Source of the DNA: Escherichia coli
GTDB taxonomy: Bacteria > Pseudomonadota > Gammaproteobacteria > Enterobacterales > Enterobacteriaceae
NCBI RefSeq assembly: GCF_029227855.1
Contig: NZ_CP074356.1
DNA length: 64,000 nt
Reading direction: 5' to 3' (one strand)
The position numbers and the translations under genes are program-made. Positions 668 through 15,417 of the stretch are shown in pieces. The notes below the pieces were generated by a model. The model did not search any database. It was given only the letters and a program-made list of their open reading frames with translations, and had not been told where the DNA came from. How positions within the stretch are numbered: position 1 is the stretch's first letter; each line of letters begins with the position of its first letter.

Positions 668-1378
668 GTGAAATACAAATTACTGCCATGCTTACTCGCG
701 ATATTCCTCACAGGATGTGACCGAACAGAGGTAACACTTTCATTTACCCCTGAGATGGCCAGTTTCTCTAATGAATTCGATTTTGATCCGCTGCGTGGTC
801 CGGTAAAAGATTTCACTCAGACATTAATGGATGAGCAAGGTGAAGTGACGAAACGTGTTTCGGGGACTTTGTCGGAAGAAGGCTGTTTTGATTCACTCGA
901 ATTACTGGATCTGGAAAATAATACCGTGGTTGCCCTGGTACTGGACGCCAATTATTACCGTGATGCCCAGACACTGGAGAAAAGAGTTCGTTTGCAGGGA
1001 AAATGCCAGCTAGCAGAATTACCTTCTGCCGGGGTGAGTTGGGAAACCGATGATAATGGCTTTGTGATTAAAGCCAGCAGCAAACAGATGCAGATGGAAT
1101 ATCGCTATGATGATCAGGGGTATCCGCTGGGTAAAACCACGAAAAGTAACGACAAAACATTATCTGTTAGCGCCACGCCATCAACGGACCCGATCAAAAA
1201 ATTAGATTACACAGCGGTTACTTTACTGAATAATCAAAGAGTTGGTAATGTAAAACAGAGCTGTGAATATGACAGTCACGCCAATCCGGTGGACTGTCAG
1301 CTAATCATTGTTGATGAAGGAGTAAAACCCGCCATCGAACGGGTTTACACCATCAAAAATACTATCGATTATTATTAA
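668..1378 (+). CDS. ynfC: lipoprotein YnfC (UPF0257)
   Basis: ORF 632-1378; lipobox LAIFLTGCD; probable GTG start at 668 giving MKYKLLPCLL; start uncertain. Confidence 0.8.
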   Translation: MKYKLLPCLLAIFLTGCDRTEVTLSFTPEMASFSNEFDFDPLRGPVKDFTQTLMDEQGEVTKRVSGTLSEEGCFDSLELLDLENNTVVALVLDANYYRDAQTLEKRVRLQGKCQLAELPSAGVSWETDDNGFVIKASSKQMQMEYRYDDQGYPLGKTTKSNDKTLSVSATPSTDPIKKLDYTAVTLLNNQRVGNVKQSCEYDSHANPVDCQLIIVDEGVKPAIERVYTIKNTIDYY

Positions 1379-1380
1379 TG

Positions 1381-1941
1381 CTATTGTGCGGTCGGCTTCA
1401 GGAGAGTCTGACCCGGTGTTTTGTGCTCTGCCAGATACTGATGCTGGAATATGCACATGCGAATGGCATTCCGATATTGACCATTAATAAAGAACTCATG
1501 CATCAATTCACCTTCAACCGTAAAGCCAAGCTTGCGGTAAATGTGAATCGCTTTTTCATTCTCTTTATCGACGATCAGATACAGCTTATAGAGATTGAGA
1601 ACGGTGAAGCCATAGTCCATTGCTAATTTTGCGGCACGCGTTGCCAGACCTTTCCCCTGATATTCCGGGGAGATAATTATCTGAAATTCTGCGCGGCGAT
1701 GAACATGGTTAATTTCCACCAGCTCCACCAGACCGGCTTTTTCGCCGTCACATTCCACCACAAAGCGCCGTTCGCTCTGATCGTGAATATGCTTATCGTA
1801 CAGATCAGAGAGTTCAACAAAGGCTTCGTAGGGTTCCTCAAACCAGTAACGCATCACACTGGCGTTATTGTCGAGTTGATGTACATAGCGTAAATCTTCA
1901 CGCTCCAGCGGGCGTAGCTTAACACTGTGGGCGCTTGGCAT
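1381..1941 (-). CDS. speG: spermidine N1-acetyltransferase
   Basis: 186-aa [44 protein letters not shown]..., GNAT fold, matches remembered SpeG. Confidence 0.95.
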
Positions 1942-1975
1942 AACGTGTCCTTACATTCCTTAAATCAATAACAGG

Positions 1976-2317
1976 TTAGGGGGTAATAACGCGGCCAGTT
2001 CGACGATCCAGGCAGCGCAAAGTATTTGGCTCCCAGTAGGCATTGATGTTGGCGCTTTGCTCACATTTATCGCGGTTATCAAAAGCGGCGTCGGCTTTAT
2101 CCCACTCTTTTTCAGTGCGTTTATTCACTTTCTGGCGCAGATTGCGCGTGTCATTCCATTGCTCTTTTTCCATCGCGGCGTGCTGGCGGCTTTGTGCACT
2201 GTCGCCAGACTCAATCACCAGTTTGTTAGTTTCGGCATGAATAGTTGTGCTCAATGCCAGTGCGCAAGGCAGCAGAAAAGCGAGCAGGCCAATTCGTTTG
2301 CTGAGAGTAATTTTCAT
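1976..2317 (-). CDS. ynfB: UPF0482 protein YnfB
   Basis: 113-aa ORF with signal peptide [28 protein letters not shown]; conserved position between speG and ynfA. Confidence 0.85.
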
Positions 2318-2451
2318 AATTCATTCCCTGTATGAATGATTAAAGGTGATTCTACACCATCCACTGCGAACGCAAAACGTACCAGGAGGATGTTTATATT
2401 GATGATATTATGTCGCCCTATAACTATACATGATGTCAATAAGTGACAAAG

Positions 2452-2778
2452 ATGATTAAAACAACGTTACTATTTTTTGCTACTGCGCTGTGTGAAATTA
2501 TTGGATGCTTTCTGCCCTGGTTGTGGTTAAAACGAAACGCCAGTATCTGGCTGTTGCTTCCGGCGGGGATTTCTCTGGCACTGTTTGTCTGGTTGTTAAC
2601 GTTGCATCCTGCGGCGAGTGGGCGTGTTTACGCGGCTTATGGTGGCGTTTATGTCTGCACGGCGTTGATTTGGCTGCGCGTTGTGGATGGCGTGAAACTG
2701 AGTCTTTATGACTGGACGGGGGCGTTGATTGCGCTTTGCGGCATGTTGATCATTGTTGCGGGCTGGGGGCGCGCGTAA
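2452..2778 (+). CDS. ynfA: UPF0060 inner membrane protein YnfA
   Basis: 108-aa hydrophobic ORF from ATG 2452 ([26 protein letters not shown]...), four predicted TM segments. Confidence 0.9.
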
Positions 2779-2982
2779 GGACATAAATCCATTTTATCAA
2801 TAAGATACGAGGAAGTGTCAGCTGACAAAAGGTATTCTATTTCATCTTTTGTCAACCATTCACGACGCAAATATACGCCTTTTTTTGTGATCACTCCGGT
2901 TTTTTTGATCTTCATACTTGTATGGTAGTAGCTCAGTTGCGTAGATTTCATGCATCACGACAAGCGATGCAAGGAATCGAAC

Positions 2983-4197
2983 ATGAAGATCGTAAAGGCT
3001 GAAGTTTTTGTTACCTGTCCGGGGCGTAATTTCGTCACATTAAAAATCACTACTGAGGACGGTATTACGGGCCTTGGGGATGCCACCCTCAATGGACGTG
3101 AGCTTTCCGTGGCCTCTTATTTGCAGGATCACCTTTGTCCGCAGCTTATTGGTCGCGATGCGCACCGTATCGAAGATATCTGGCAGTTTTTCTATAAAGG
3201 TGCTTACTGGCGTCGCGGCCCGGTGACGATGTCGGCCATTTCAGCGGTTGATATGGCGCTGTGGGATATTAAAGCCAAAGCTGCCAACATGCCGCTTTAC
3301 CAGTTACTCGGCGGCGCGTCTCGTGAAGGGGTGATGGTTTATTGCCATACCACCGGTCACAGTATTGATGAAGCTCTGGATGATTATGCCCGTCATCAGG
3401 AGCTGGGATTCAAAGCCATCCGCGTGCAGTGCGGAATCCCTGGTATGAAAACCACATACGGCATGTCGAAAGGTAAAGGTCTGGCTTATGAACCCGCAAC
3501 CAAAGGACAGTGGCCGGAAGAGCAGCTGTGGTCGACGGAGAAATACCTCGATTTCATGCCGAAATTGTTTGACGCGGTACGTAACAAGTTTGGTTTTAAT
3601 GAACATTTGCTGCATGACATGCACCATCGCTTAACGCCTATTGAAGCGGCGCGCTTTGGTAAAAGCATTGAAGATTATCGCATGTTCTGGATGGAAGACC
3701 CGACGCCTGCGGAAAACCAGGAATGCTTCCGTCTCATTCGCCAACATACCGTCACACCCATCGCGGTGGGTGAAGTCTTCAACAGCATCTGGGACTGCAA
3801 GCAACTGATTGAAGAGCAACTTATCGATTATATCCGCACTACGCTGACCCACGCGGGTGGCATTACCGGTATGCGCCGGATTGCCGATTTTGCTTCGCTG
3901 TATCAGGTACGTACTGGCTCACACGGTCCTTCCGATTTGTCACCAGTCTGCATGGCTGCGGCGCTGCACTTTGATCTGTGGGTCCCCAATTTCGGTGTCC
4001 AGGAATACATGGGTTATTCCGAACAAATGCTCGAAGTCTTCCCGCACAACTGGACTTTCGATAACGGCTATATGCATCCGGGAGACAAACCGGGTCTTGG
4101 CATCGAATTCGATGAAAAGCTGGCGGCGAAATATCCCTATGAATCTGCTTATCTACCAGTCGCACGTCTGGAAGATGGCACGCTGTGGAACTGGTAA
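2983..4197 (+). CDS. rspA: starvation-sensing protein RspA (enolase superfamily, mannonate dehydratase-like)
   Basis: 404-aa ORF from ATG 2983 ([40 protein letters not shown]...), enolase-superfamily motifs. Confidence 0.95.
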
Positions 4198-9820: not shown

Positions 9821-9996
9821 CCTTTTTGTATCGGACGTAAACGGGCCAGCATTGAAAGAATGCATACTTTATTTAATAGCTCCCGTTCTTGTTTTCTCTT
9901 GTTAATGGCATCTTCAGTAAATACTGGGTTACTGATAGTGACACCAATTTCAAAACAACCTTCAGACGTATTAACGTTTGGTAATAACGTTTTCAT
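9808..9996 (-). CDS. hypothetical early-left phage protein
   Basis: ATG at 9996 (MKTLLPNVNTSEGCFEIG...) preceded by SD gagga with about 7-nt spacer. Confidence 0.4.
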   Translation of the reverse strand: MKTLLPNVNTSEGCFEIGVTISNPVFTEDAINKRKQERELLNKVCILSMLARLRPIQKGCWQ

Positions 9997-10482
9997 TATC
10001 GCGTCCTCAACAATGAATTTTGTGATGCAGTGCCTGGTGCCTCCAGGTGACGTTAACCAGTTAACAATTAACGTCGGATACAGAGAATCCACCCATAACA
10101 CTGTTTTTGGTTTTAACTGTTCCGCGTGCGCTCAGCCGCATTCACCGCATCACAAAATTCACTTTAAAAACGGCGGCAGAGCAGTCACGGAGTAAAACTG
10201 ATACCGCTAAACGTCACCAGAAAATTGATAACAGAGGGCGTTGCAGCGGGGTTGTCACTTAAGCGTATGGTCAACCTGACAACCCGGTGTCCTCAACGGG
10301 GAAGGAATAACCCCGCCATACTTACCGCCGCGCCATTTCGCGGGTTGCCACAACCGGAAGCGCACGGTCGAATTAAATTTAACGACACCGTACAGTGAGA
10401 CGAACTTCGCCGTGCGCTTTCGTGTTGTGTGCCTGCTTTTAACCACGTCAGGCGAGGTGGTATCCTTAAAATCACCACAGTT

Positions 10483-11058
10483 TTAAGGATTCATTAAGCA
10501 ATGTCGCAACCACCAATAAATCCGCTTAAGAACATGAAAATTGATTACTGGTATAAAGCGCTTACAGTTGTTGGCGCTGCGTTGTTTGTCTTTAATGGAA
10601 CGTCTTTTTTTGACAGATATCCCGTTGTTCCATTGGGTTTTTTGTCCTCCGGCATCTTTTTTATTGGTTTGGGGGAGTGGATTAATCACCCTCTCAAAGT
10701 GAGATTTATTGGTCCTGGAGTTTGGACTCGTGGATATAATCGTTCTTCGTGCGCACTCGGTATCATCTTCGACATACTTGGTTGTTTCCTGATTGTTACA
10801 GGAGTCGTCAAGTTCTTCTGATGTAAAACCGCAAATGGGGCACGTAACGGGAATTTTGAAAAGCGTTTCTCCGGGTTCCAGAACAAAATTTTCTGCGGTC
10901 TGATTTTGCTTCTCATATTTGTGCTCCGCGTCATTGTGAGAGCACATTCTTATTCTGAGTGCCTGTTTAAACTCACTGAAGCTGAGAGCTTCTTCGCCTT
11001 CGGCAAGACCTTCGAAGTATTCTTCGTAAGCCTTTTCCATGATTGTGTCGAAATCCAT
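10483..11058 (-). CDS. hypothetical phage protein with zinc-ribbon-like N-terminal half
   Basis: Start ATG 11058 with SD aggtga; N-terminal half MDFDTIMEKAYEEYFEGL... with C-x-H...CPICG motif; C-terminal half fully overlaps a plus-strand ORF in antisense codon register, so one of the two is probably an artefact. Confidence 0.35.
   Translation of the reverse strand: MDFDTIMEKAYEEYFEGLAEGEEALSFSEFKQALRIRMCSHNDAEHKYEKQNQTAENFVLEPGETLFKIPVTCPICGFTSEELDDSCNNQETTKYVEDDTECARRTIISTSPNSRTNKSHFERVINPLPQTNKKDAGGQKTQWNNGISVKKRRSIKDKQRSANNCKRFIPVINFHVLKRIYWWLRHCLMNP
10501..10821 (+). CDS. hypothetical 3-TM membrane protein (possible superinfection-exclusion-like)
   Basis: 106-aa ORF with three clear hydrophobic segments separated by short polar loops; overlaps the minus-strand ORF 10483-11058 in antisense; cannot decide which is real without codon statistics. 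Confidence 0.35.
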   Translation: MSQPPINPLKNMKIDYWYKALTVVGAALFVFNGTSFFDRYPVVPLGFLSSGIFFIGLGEWINHPLKVRFIGPGVWTRGYNRSSCALGIIFDILGCFLIVTGVVKFF

Positions 11059-11059
11059 A

Positions 11060-11215
11060 TCACTCACCTGAGTTTCTTTCCAGCCAGCGACGGGCACCAT
11101 TTTCGGTTTTAAACGTTTTGCTTTTGGTATATGTCATCGCGGTGAACGTACCGTCCTGGTTGGGGAACACGCCACATACCAGAGATTCGCTGTTGCCAAG
11201 ATCGATAGTATCCAT
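11060..11215 (-). CDS. hypothetical small phage protein
   Basis: ORF 11060-11269; likely start MDTIDLGNSE at 11215; stop adjacent to start of downstream gene. Confidence 0.35.
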   Translation of the reverse strand: MDTIDLGNSESLVCGVFPNQDGTFTAMTYTKSKTFKTENGARRWLERNSGE

Positions 11216-11383: not shown

Positions 11384-11791
11384 TTATTTTATTGATTTAT
11401 TTTTACGCGCTTTAAGCATTTCTTCGAAGAGTTTGTTGAAGTTTTCTACTCTTGCGCGCATTTCAGACAGCAAGGCTTCCTGCTCGGAAGATGGAAGAGC
11501 ATCGAATAATTCGATCAATTCTTTGTGGTTGGGAGTTAGCTCTGTTTCCACATGAAGTTCTTGTGCAGGCACTGGTGCCTTGTCTTCGTCACCAAACATT
11601 AGCCATGTAGGTGAGCACTTCAGAGCATCCGCTAAAGCAAACAATCGTTTTCCGACTGGCTGGGTTTCGTCTCTTTCCCATTGTGAAATTGTGACGTGAG
11701 CAACTCCAGCGAGGCGCGCAGCTTCTCGTTGTGTTAAGCGTAATTCTTTTCGTCGCGCCAGAACTCGCTGGCCTAGGGTTCTTGTATCCAT
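11384..11791 (-). CDS. DicA-like HTH (XRE family) prophage repressor
   Basis: 135-aa ORF; HTH LTQREAARLAGVAHVTISQWERDETQP; no peptidase S24 domain; divergent from a Cro/DicC-like gene. Confidence 0.85.
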   Translation of the reverse strand: MDTRTLGQRVLARRKELRLTQREAARLAGVAHVTISQWERDETQPVGKRLFALADALKCSPTWLMFGDEDKAPVPAQELHVETELTPNHKELIELFDALPSSEQEALLSEMRARVENFNKLFEEMLKARKNKSIK

Positions 11792-14587: not shown

Positions 14588-15184
14588 ATGGTTGGTGTTA
14601 CTCAAAGGTCAGGGAATTACTCACGTAATGTGCAGGTGGTTGTCGATTCTAACTCTGTTGATATTATAAAGTCTCCATCGATTTTTATGGATCTTGTTGG
14701 TATTTTAGTTGATTCGAATGTTATTGATCCTCGTACAAACAATGACTACGAGCCATATGATATTGAGAATAAAATAGACTTCAATGATGTTATAAAACAT
14801 AGAGAACGTATTGAAGGGTTCTATCTATATTCTTCGATGATAGATAAAGCGTATGAAACATTAAATGAAAGTATGCCTACTGCTAAGGAAACGGCACTGA
14901 AAAGCATCAATTCACGATATCTTGATTGTCAAGGAGATTTATTGCTTAAACATAGAGAAGCGTATAAGAGCTGCAAGGATGCTCAGGAACGGAATAATTT
15001 AAAGATTCAATTGGTAAGAGAGTTTGCAGATTGGATAATAGACAGTGTAATAGAGCACATCATTAAGAAATGCTTAAATTCTCTTATGGCAATGAATTAC
15101 ACAAGCGAAGAAATCGAATGCCATGCTTCTTTTATCGTTTATCATGCATTCGTAGAGTGTAAGATTCTGGAAAAACCAATATGA
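14588..15184 (+). CDS. hypothetical protein, 198 aa (candidate effector/partner of SMC-like ATPase)
   Basis: ATG 14588 with SD gagg; AT-rich codon usage; stop overlaps next start (ATGA). Confidence 0.6.
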   Translation: MVGVTQRSGNYSRNVQVVVDSNSVDIIKSPSIFMDLVGILVDSNVIDPRTNNDYEPYDIENKIDFNDVIKHRERIEGFYLYSSMIDKAYETLNESMPTAKETALKSINSRYLDCQGDLLLKHREAYKSCKDAQERNNLKIQLVREFADWIIDSVIEHIIKKCLNSLMAMNYTSEEIECHASFIVYHAFVECKILEKPI

Positions 15185-15417
15185 TTATCTCTGATGTAAC
15201 AAAACCAAGCCAAACCTTGTATTACCTGGGAGCTCGGTTATTAGAATGCATGAGTTCAAATGCTTATTCGTATGTTGATATTATAGACTTGTATAATGAA
15301 TTCAAATCTAAAAATAACAACTCTTCATTCACGCAATATATTTACACTTTAAATTGGCTATATTTATTAGGCCTGGTTGATGCTAACGAAAATGGAGATT
15401 TGATATTATGTTTTTGA
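15181..15417 (+). CDS. hypothetical small protein, 78 aa (candidate middle component)
   Basis: Translationally coupled to both neighbours: 4-nt overlap upstream, 10-nt overlap downstream. Confidence 0.5.
   Translation: MIISDVTKPSQTLYYLGARLLECMSSNAYSYVDIIDLYNEFKSKNNNSSFTQYIYTLNWLYLLGLVDANENGDLILCF

Follow-up and report, generated by a model that had tools for sequence, protein, structure and literature searches.

In a 64,000-nucleotide stretch of the Escherichia coli contig NZ_CP074356.1 (the window), a Qin-like lambdoid prophage carries two open reading frames (ORFs) on opposite strands of the same DNA, a plus-strand ORF of 106 codons that lies entirely inside a minus-strand ORF of 191 codons. 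The minus-strand genes of the prophage at this locus form its early-left (dicBF) operon. Our analysis suggests that the two ORFs belong to a two-strand module of temperate phages, in which an independent, moron-like gene for a membrane protein faces backward in the early operon, and the opposing minus-strand ORF is translated and kept open, likely as a protection against transcriptional polarity. We consider this reading probable.

The plus-strand ORF is a real, conserved gene of an undescribed family, as judged by full-length homologues with invariant motifs, the number of its relatives, a confident structural model and variation at third codon positions. Full-length homologues of 100-115 residues, with 34-58% identity, occur in Yersinia, Herminiimonas, Reinekea and many metagenomes, and a profile search of 1.84 billion representative proteins recovered 535 cluster representatives at E<=1e-3. 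Two motifs, D15-Y-W-Y-K-A and G56-L-G-E-W-x-N-H-P, are invariant or nearly so among the homologues, and the window protein shares the characters of the family, namely a length of ~100-115 residues, three helices and the invariant residues W17, G58, E59, W60, N62, H63, P64 and G87. The AlphaFold2 model of the protein (predicted local distance difference test, pLDDT, 88.8; predicted template modelling score, pTM, 0.74) contains helices at residues 17-32, 42-62 and 85-105 and a hairpin at 66-78. Differences between lineages are by far most frequent at plus codon position 3, followed by position 1 and then position 2, and omega, the ratio of nonsynonymous to synonymous rates, is about 0.1-0.35. 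These results bear out the initial annotation, made from the window sequence alone, which had proposed a genuine plus-strand gene with three transmembrane segments. The gene is old and strongly conserved, and temperate phages have acquired it as an accessory gene that faces backward, at a place comparable to that of sieB, the superinfection exclusion B gene of Rac, lambda and P22, whose product is antagonised by Esc.

The plus protein had no match in Pfam, PHROGs, NCBIfam or PADLOC, and fold searches with its model returned only generic helical bundles. Its database records are sporadic and carry the name 'hypothetical protein'. A search for conserved neighbours around non-phage homologues found none. 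In Reinekea marinisedimentorum (L013:100-3100), the non-phage homologue stands among small co-directional ORFs with a spacing of about 60-185 bp and a ParD-like gene last, a run that is reminiscent of an integron cassette array.

Both ORFs are intact and conserved as ORFs across relatives, and their frames are in exact codon-on-codon register, as the initial annotation had described. In this register, stops in the minus frame can arise only from TTA, CTA or TCA codons of the plus gene. The plus gene contains none of the three; the remaining two antisense frames contain 2 and 10 stops. For the window alone, the probability of an open antisense frame is 0.059, given the amino acid sequence and local codon usage. 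The minus frame is also free of stops in every one of nine lineages: the window variant (W), P13, Yersinia, L071, L070, L073, L074, L083 and phage mEp390. Where the amino acids of these lineages agree, only 0.24-0.55 of the codons are the same, close to saturation. An open frame has a probability of 0.002-0.11 in each lineage, and the product over the nine is about 1e-15. The avoidance is specific to codons that would create stops. In the genes of seven of the nine open lineages, A-ending codons account for 0/112 of the Leu and Ser (TCN) codons, compared with 67/352 for Val, Thr, Ala, Pro, Gly and Ile (p=2e-9). The rare codons AGA, ATA and GGA are freely used, so the avoidance of stops is not codon optimisation.

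The open state also follows the genomic setting. Homologues that no opposing operon crosses have 2-17 antisense stops at comparable GC content. Of the loci embedded in such an operon, 10 were open and 2 closed; of the non-embedded loci, 1 was open and 10 were closed (p=6e-4). At one embedded locus, in a prophage of Edwardsiella ictaluri (L068), the minus ORF ends one codon into the overlap (...CPICGFTSE*), and it is followed by no minus-strand genes; an AbiH-like gene is found there instead. Together, these codon and locus comparisons indicate that the stop-free state of the minus frame in the overlap is conserved by selection.

Within the overlap, the amino acid sequence of the minus frame is unconstrained. 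Purifying selection on amino acids was found there for the plus frame and not for the minus frame. Saturation, at 0.65-0.79 differences per site, has been reached at positions where a change is silent in the plus frame but alters the minus protein, and the identity of the minus protein drops about three times faster than that of the plus protein (62% and 89%, respectively, between the window variant and a second E. coli variant, E2). Changes that alter both proteins at once (NN) occur less often than those that alter the plus protein and are silent in the minus frame (NS), with a ratio of 0.5-0.7 between lineages and 0.4 among E. coli variants. In the manner of OLGenie, an NN/NS ratio below 1 could be taken as selection on the minus protein. 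We rejected this, because the ratio is equal in comparisons with L068, whose antisense frame is closed; the deficit of NN changes reflects the plus frame alone, through the difference between plus codon positions 1 and 2. AlphaFold2 predicts the minus protein to be disordered (pLDDT 49, pTM 0.16) except for a C-terminal helix (pLDDT about 76), and this helix is the antisense of the invariant DYWYKA region. The initial annotation had treated the overlapping half, rich in K, N, Q and R as it stated, as the mere antisense of a hydrophobic gene. That description fits the amino acids, and it does not fit the openness of the frame, which is itself under selection.

Outside the overlap, the minus ORF has a different character. 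The alignments show it to be a chimera, in which YdfB codons 1-33 are followed by a segment that the module encodes and then by the antisense of the plus gene. The YdfB-like family phrog_2061 matches residues 1-34 (E=3e-21), and phrog_35040 matches the full length; these were the only matches of the minus protein in Pfam, PHROGs, NCBIfam and PADLOC. The protein has no full-length similarity to the 42-residue YdfB of K-12 Qin, with which only codons 1-33 are shared. The start codon has the Shine-Dalgarno sequence AGGTGAG 5 nt upstream and the stop codon of ydfA 1 nt before it (TGA-T-ATG), an arrangement by which the minus ORF appears to be translationally coupled to ydfA. An alternative ATG upstream, at 11100, would give a minus ORF of 205 residues.

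The module-encoded segment, GETLFKIPVTCPICGF, is conserved, and its variation lies mainly at minus third codon positions. Within it, the motif GETLFKIPVTCPICGFT directly before the overlap is kept through synonymous changes (ATT/ATC/ATA, CCC/CCG/CCT, TGC/TGT, GGT/GGA and TTT/TTC). Differences in the motif region number 103 at minus codon position 3, 56 at position 1 and 49 at position 2, and the ratio of nonsynonymous to synonymous differences (pN/pS) is 0.23-0.83. These patterns argue that the minus strand is coding adjacent to the overlap and under protein-level selection there. The N-terminal motif, in the general form PG-x3-F-...-V-x-CPxCGF, always accompanies the plus gene in phage loci, whatever the upstream fusion. 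In seven other lineages, translation could begin 34-36 codons before the overlap, at a start codon that a good Shine-Dalgarno sequence precedes, and the minus ORFs keep a constant length of 149-165 residues. In a related clade (L070, L073, L074, L083 and mEp390), the sequence PGSV...GSVTLIGW (GS-V-T-L-I-G-W) stands where the cysteines of the CPxCG motif would be.

Two other readings of this flank were rejected. The plus +1 frame has its wobble positions in common with the minus frame. If the flank were read in it or through frameshifting, the wobble changes, which are synonymous in the minus frame, would give K/N, Q/H and M/I/T replacements; conservation is also lower in plus +1, and stops interrupt it just upstream. 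A terminator or an RNA element was rejected as well, as there is no hairpin with a T-run and the variation has a three-base periodicity. The initial annotation was correct about the good Shine-Dalgarno sequence, about the C-x-H and CPICG elements and about a protein-like character limited to the non-overlapping part of the minus ORF, where the protein-level selection is found. Its description of the product as zinc-ribbon-like was not supported, since there is a single conserved CPxCG knuckle where a zinc ribbon has two, the C-x-H element is specific to the window variant and one clade is free of cysteines at this site. The zinc-ribbon matches were insignificant (Pfam RUBY_RBDX, E=0.13; a PHROG Lar-like family, E=0.29).

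The plus gene travels together with its flanks. In a BLASTN comparison with K-12 Qin (L080), homology stops at 10961 and resumes at 10440, and the inserted module stands in place of ydfC, of ydfB after codon 33 and of about 120 nt. In the E. coli variant E2 (L062 and L064), the same module is found with another junction, where it replaces ydfA and ydfB, and the plus protein is 88-89% identical. The E2 module begins exactly at the ydfA ATG and continues in frame into ydfC, with an open stretch of about 280 codons. The window module is fused in frame to ydfB codon 33, and both E. coli junctions are thus in frame. The operon setting also varies. At the P0013 and P0014 loci, which belong to several prophage types, more distant plus homologues lie 300-400 bp from cI-like genes, convergent with these and antisense to the early-left operon, and in another clade (L070, L073 and L074) the module is antisense in the cro-side operon. 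In mEp390, the minus ORF is separated from its neighbours by 36 and 16 nt, and in L077 it has 4-nt overlaps on both sides. Judged by these differing junctions and operon settings, the module is mobile. We note that the scan of a genome collection used strict search patterns, with which only 12 loci were found.

Some details of these loci are recorded here. In E2, the fusion forms a single ORF of 245 residues (L062:2692-3426 on the minus strand, and L064), which begins with the ydfA ATG, crosses the antisense of the plus gene and finishes where ydfC ends; the link of ~35 codons between the module and ydfC has no stop. In mEp390 (L094, NC_019721), the minus ORF is annotated as gp39 (2456-2911), between the cro-like gp38 and the cII-like gp40, and the plus gene opposite to it is unannotated, with an apparent TTG start behind an AAGGA Shine-Dalgarno sequence. 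In L068, the region 1306-3666 contains a duplicate of the last ~60 codons of the minus gene (1306-1536; ...DIVESQPWVNASRSE...CPICGFTSE) and the AbiH-like gene (1560-2537, plus strand), and a GC-rich non-coding stretch lies near the plus gene. The duplication and the AbiH-like gene suggest insertion or exchange of a cassette at a hotspot for defence genes. A homologue search with the L068 minus protein returned Edwardsiella ictaluri only.

The plus gene is predicted to be expressed independently of the early operon, because it has its own conserved promoter-like element. The extended -10 element TGGTATCCT (10458-10466), which has TTAACC 16 nt upstream, is invariant in W, E2, P13 and Yersinia and lies 41-44 nt upstream of the plus start. 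Its counterpart in L068 is TGCTATCAT, and the other clade has TAGAAT in common. The inverted repeat that overlaps the candidate -35 element may serve as an operator or may form a hairpin in the RNA of the early operon.

We propose the following model for the module. The product of the plus gene would be an inner-membrane protein that is expressed in the lysogen, as a moron is, and that may act in phage exclusion or have another effect on the envelope. When the early operon is transcribed, ribosomes would start at the ydfB ATG or, in other phages, at the module-encoded start 34-36 codons before the overlap; they would first translate the short conserved peptide and then the antisense of the whole membrane-protein gene. 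Selection removes stops from the overlap without conserving amino acids, and uninterrupted translation would be what matters. It is established that Rho terminates untranslated transcripts, including antisense ones (PMC5909445, PMC11551753). A ribosome 'bridge' of this kind would therefore prevent polarity on the downstream early genes, shielding the early transcript from Rho-dependent termination or from cleavage. The genes kept on in this way would be dicF, dicB and the exonuclease gene in the window, and cII and the replication genes in other phages. The in-frame junctions in E. coli and the tight packing of the mEp390 ORF between cro and cII fit such a bridge, as does the loss of the minus tail in L068, where no minus genes lie downstream.

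Several points weigh against this model. L072 is embedded in an early operon with downstream minus genes, yet it has 9 antisense stops. The independence of the nine lineages was argued from synonymous saturation instead of a phylogenetic model. A strict consensus scan called no promoter and no terminator for the plus gene. Across the overlap, the minus RNA shows no marked richness in C (C/G 0.7-1.2), and a strong Rho site is not evident; we found C/G skew to be uninformative as an indicator of Rho sites. In the enterobacterial lineages, about 230-330 nt beyond the minus stop remain untranslated, and some risk of polarity would persist even with a bridge. Both ORFs are intact in 40 of 47 copies from E. 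coli prophages in IMG/VR; the minus frame is no longer open in 4, and the plus gene is broken in 3. Neither ORF is indispensable in these prophages, which are often cryptic. Finally, the bridge alone does not explain why a specific N-terminal peptide is conserved. We speculate, by analogy with Esc and SieB, that this peptide antagonises the membrane protein during lytic growth. It is possible, and we suggest it only tentatively, that the two ORFs are a co-inherited pair, in which the minus ORF is kept purely as a translatable bridge across a lysogeny gene and its N-terminal peptide perhaps serves as an antidote too.

An alternative is that the locus is, first of all, a killer and antidote pair like SieB and Esc, which we regard as unlikely. 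By this analogy, the plus protein would be an effector of lysogen exclusion or abortive infection and a minus-strand early protein would neutralise it, either with its N-terminal peptide or with the hitch-hiking C-terminal helix; the placement on opposite strands would make their expression mutually exclusive. The N-terminal motif accompanies the plus gene in different operons, where it is fused to the N-terminus of YdfB, to the ydfA ATG or, in L068, to an unrelated domain of 70 residues; it is under purifying selection, and it is absent beside non-phage homologues. The position mirrors that of sieB in Rac, lambda and P22, and the AbiH-like gene beside the L068 plus gene suggests a defence hotspot. 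However, the searches revealed homology neither to SieB or Esc nor to any PADLOC model, the related clade has lost the motif's cysteines, and the long, unconstrained open tail would be left unexplained unless the antidote is combined with the bridge.

It is quite unlikely, in our view, that only the plus gene is functional and that the minus ORF is its shadow, open by chance and codon bias, with a truncated YdfB or an inconsequential short peptide as the real product. The probability calculated for the window alone is not compelling, the codon-on-codon antisense frame is the one most often open, and gene callers favour the longer ORF. The usual label given by the Prokaryotic Genome Annotation Pipeline (PGAP), a ydfB pseudogene, would agree with a shadow, as would the unconstrained amino acids and the disordered model, and some high-GC or non-embedded homologues are open too (L081, L084 and L091). 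What speaks against chance is the absence of stops from nine synonymously saturated lineages, the avoidance of TTA, CTA and TCA relative to the genes' own use of A-ending codons, and the stops in non-embedded homologues of similar GC content. The minus frame also has a Shine-Dalgarno sequence and a start conserved 34-36 codons upstream and an N-terminal motif under purifying selection, and two independent insertions have in-frame junctions.

True dual coding, in which the whole minus protein (191 residues; about 150 elsewhere) is functional and both proteins are under amino acid selection throughout the overlap, is very improbable, as the frame open in nine lineages, the low NN/NS ratio, the predicted C-terminal helix and the conserved minus segments antisense to DYWYKA and GLGEWINHP are countered by an equal ratio against a closed frame, by saturated minus-nonsynonymous sites, by a faster loss of minus identity, by the low pTM of the minus model and by hitch-hiking of the conserved minus islands on the plus motifs.

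The module with two coding strands and a predicted bridge is thus placed in the window as listed in Table 1, together with its neighbours in the operon. Beyond DicF, the minus strand continues with dicB, ydfD and a RecE-like exonuclease gene, according to the ORF list and PGAP. A full-length match to the small RNA STnc100 in Rfam, abutting DicF between DicF and dicB (9964-10173, minus strand), is below threshold (34.5 bits with a gathering score of 47, E=3e-5). In the early-right region of the same prophage, at about 14588-15300 on the plus strand, PGAP labels an 'ABC-three component system' protein and its 'middle component 6', and by these labels the prophage would carry a second insert of an accessory or defence type.

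Table 1 Features of the two-strand locus and its neighbours in the window
Feature	Position	Strand	Basis
Plus ORF, 106 residues	10501..10821	+	ORF scan
Gene for a predicted three-helix membrane protein of 106 residues, motifs DYWYKA and GLGEWINHP	10501..10821	+	Homologues, model, codon-position bias
Minus ORF, 191 residues	10483..11058	-	ORF scan; ATG at 11058
Overlapping part of minus ORF, stop-free, predicted disordered except for C-terminal helix	10486..10821	-	Codon comparisons, AlphaFold2
Conserved minus-frame peptide motif GETLFKIPVTCPICGFT, 17 codons directly before the overlap	10822..10872	-	Five lineages
In-frame ATG 42 codons ahead of the overlap; may correspond to the module's own start	10945..10947	-	Weak Shine-Dalgarno sequence here
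YdfB-derived N-terminal 33 codons, common to K-12 Qin	10961..11058	-	BLASTN; PGAP 'ydfB, missing C-terminus'
Mobile module, 520 bp: plus gene, its upstream signals and 5' part of minus coding segment	10441..10960		BLASTN against K-12 Qin
Candidate plus promoter: -35 TTAACC (10439-10444), 16-nt spacer, extended -10 TGgTATCCT (10458-10466)	10439..10466	+	Conserved element; prediction
Shine-Dalgarno-like AAGGA, 11 nt before plus ATG (long spacing)	10485..10489	+	Similar A/G-rich element in E2, P13, Yersinia
Inverted repeat GCCTG-N13-CAGGC overlapping candidate -35	10431..10453		Conserved in W, E2, P13, Yersinia
DicF small RNA, same operon, downstream of minus ORF	10171..10222	-	Rfam RF00039, 64.8 bits, gathering score 48, E=2e-13
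ydfA (DUF1391), operon gene upstream of minus ORF	11060..11215	-	PGAP; PF07151, E=2e-27
DicA-like repressor gene	11384-11791	-	Gene order on the minus strand, highest coordinate

The locus is common. Its sequence is found in identical form in many E. coli chromosomes and with 99.1% identity in the isolated phage HannyBb, and the module type of the window is present in 795 of 5426 complete E. coli genomes (~15%). Annotation of the locus is contradictory, in these genomes as in the phages HannyBb and mEp390. PGAP labels it as a truncated ydfB pseudogene or sometimes as the minus ORF of 191 residues (WP_000344958.1), phage annotators call the minus ORF of 205 residues, and the plus gene is annotated only occasionally. 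PHROGs has a family for the minus ORF but lacks one for the plus protein, in spite of its deep conservation; gene callers that go by length have systematically picked the strand that tells less. The plus gene codes for an as yet uncharacterised membrane protein of prophages, is placed beside an immunity region and is a new candidate effector.

The locus links overlapping ORFs, Rho-dependent polarity and the tolerance of phages for backward-facing accessory genes in early operons. If our model is true, bridge ORFs would be a general and previously unrecognised way to fit such genes into essential operons, and the locus would be among the best comparative cases of a long antisense overlap in prokaryotic viruses. 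Our literature searches found no description of this locus or of 'bridging' ORFs.

The surrounding operon is a known one. The dicBF operon of K-12 Qin has the order ydfA-ydfB-ydfC-dicF-dicB-ydfD (PMC5069750). The minus strand of the window likewise carries ydfA, ydfB codons 1-33, DicF, dicB and ydfD, but the 520-bp module takes the place of the ydfB C-terminus and ydfC.

The closest analogue in position is sieB. Like sieB, the plus gene is a small membrane-protein gene on the opposite strand inside the early-left operon of a lambdoid prophage, beside the immunity region with its repressor gene, and both could be expressed independently of the operon, which for the plus gene is predicted from its promoter-like element. 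The two differ in that there is no sequence or profile similarity, that the plus protein has 106 residues and other motifs, and that the opposing strand here has a conserved stop-free ORF that is predicted to be translated. To our knowledge, such an ORF is not a described feature of sieB. No SieB match was found in Pfam or PHROGs at E<=1, nor in PADLOC or NCBIfam. The suggestion of the initial annotation that a plus-strand gene of exclusion type lies here therefore stands for the real gene and its sieB-like position, but not for homology to SieB or to any defence family; 'exclusion-type' can be used for it as an analogy of position only.

The module also resembles phage morons, as it is a self-contained insert with its own promoter-like element, a variable presence among related prophages and differing insertion junctions. 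It differs from them in that no terminator was found in the strict scan and in that the insert appears to be co-adapted with its host operon, whose reading frame passes through it.

Bacterial long antisense overlaps have been disputed for want of evolutionary support, and the comparative signal at this locus is both strong and unusual, with openness conserved and the sequence unconstrained. Long antisense gene pairs have been described in E. coli O157:H7, for example ano and nog1 (PMC5960689, PMC9927249, bioRxiv 10.1101/2020.11.18.388249). They too consist of opposite-strand ORFs at one locus, one of which is fully embedded. The support for them reportedly comes mainly from expression in a single species, and their embedded ORF is young. 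In contrast, the evidence here is comparative and draws on nine lineages that diverged deeply, it is the embedded gene that is old and strongly conserved, and the embedding ORF is selected for its openness, not for its sequence.

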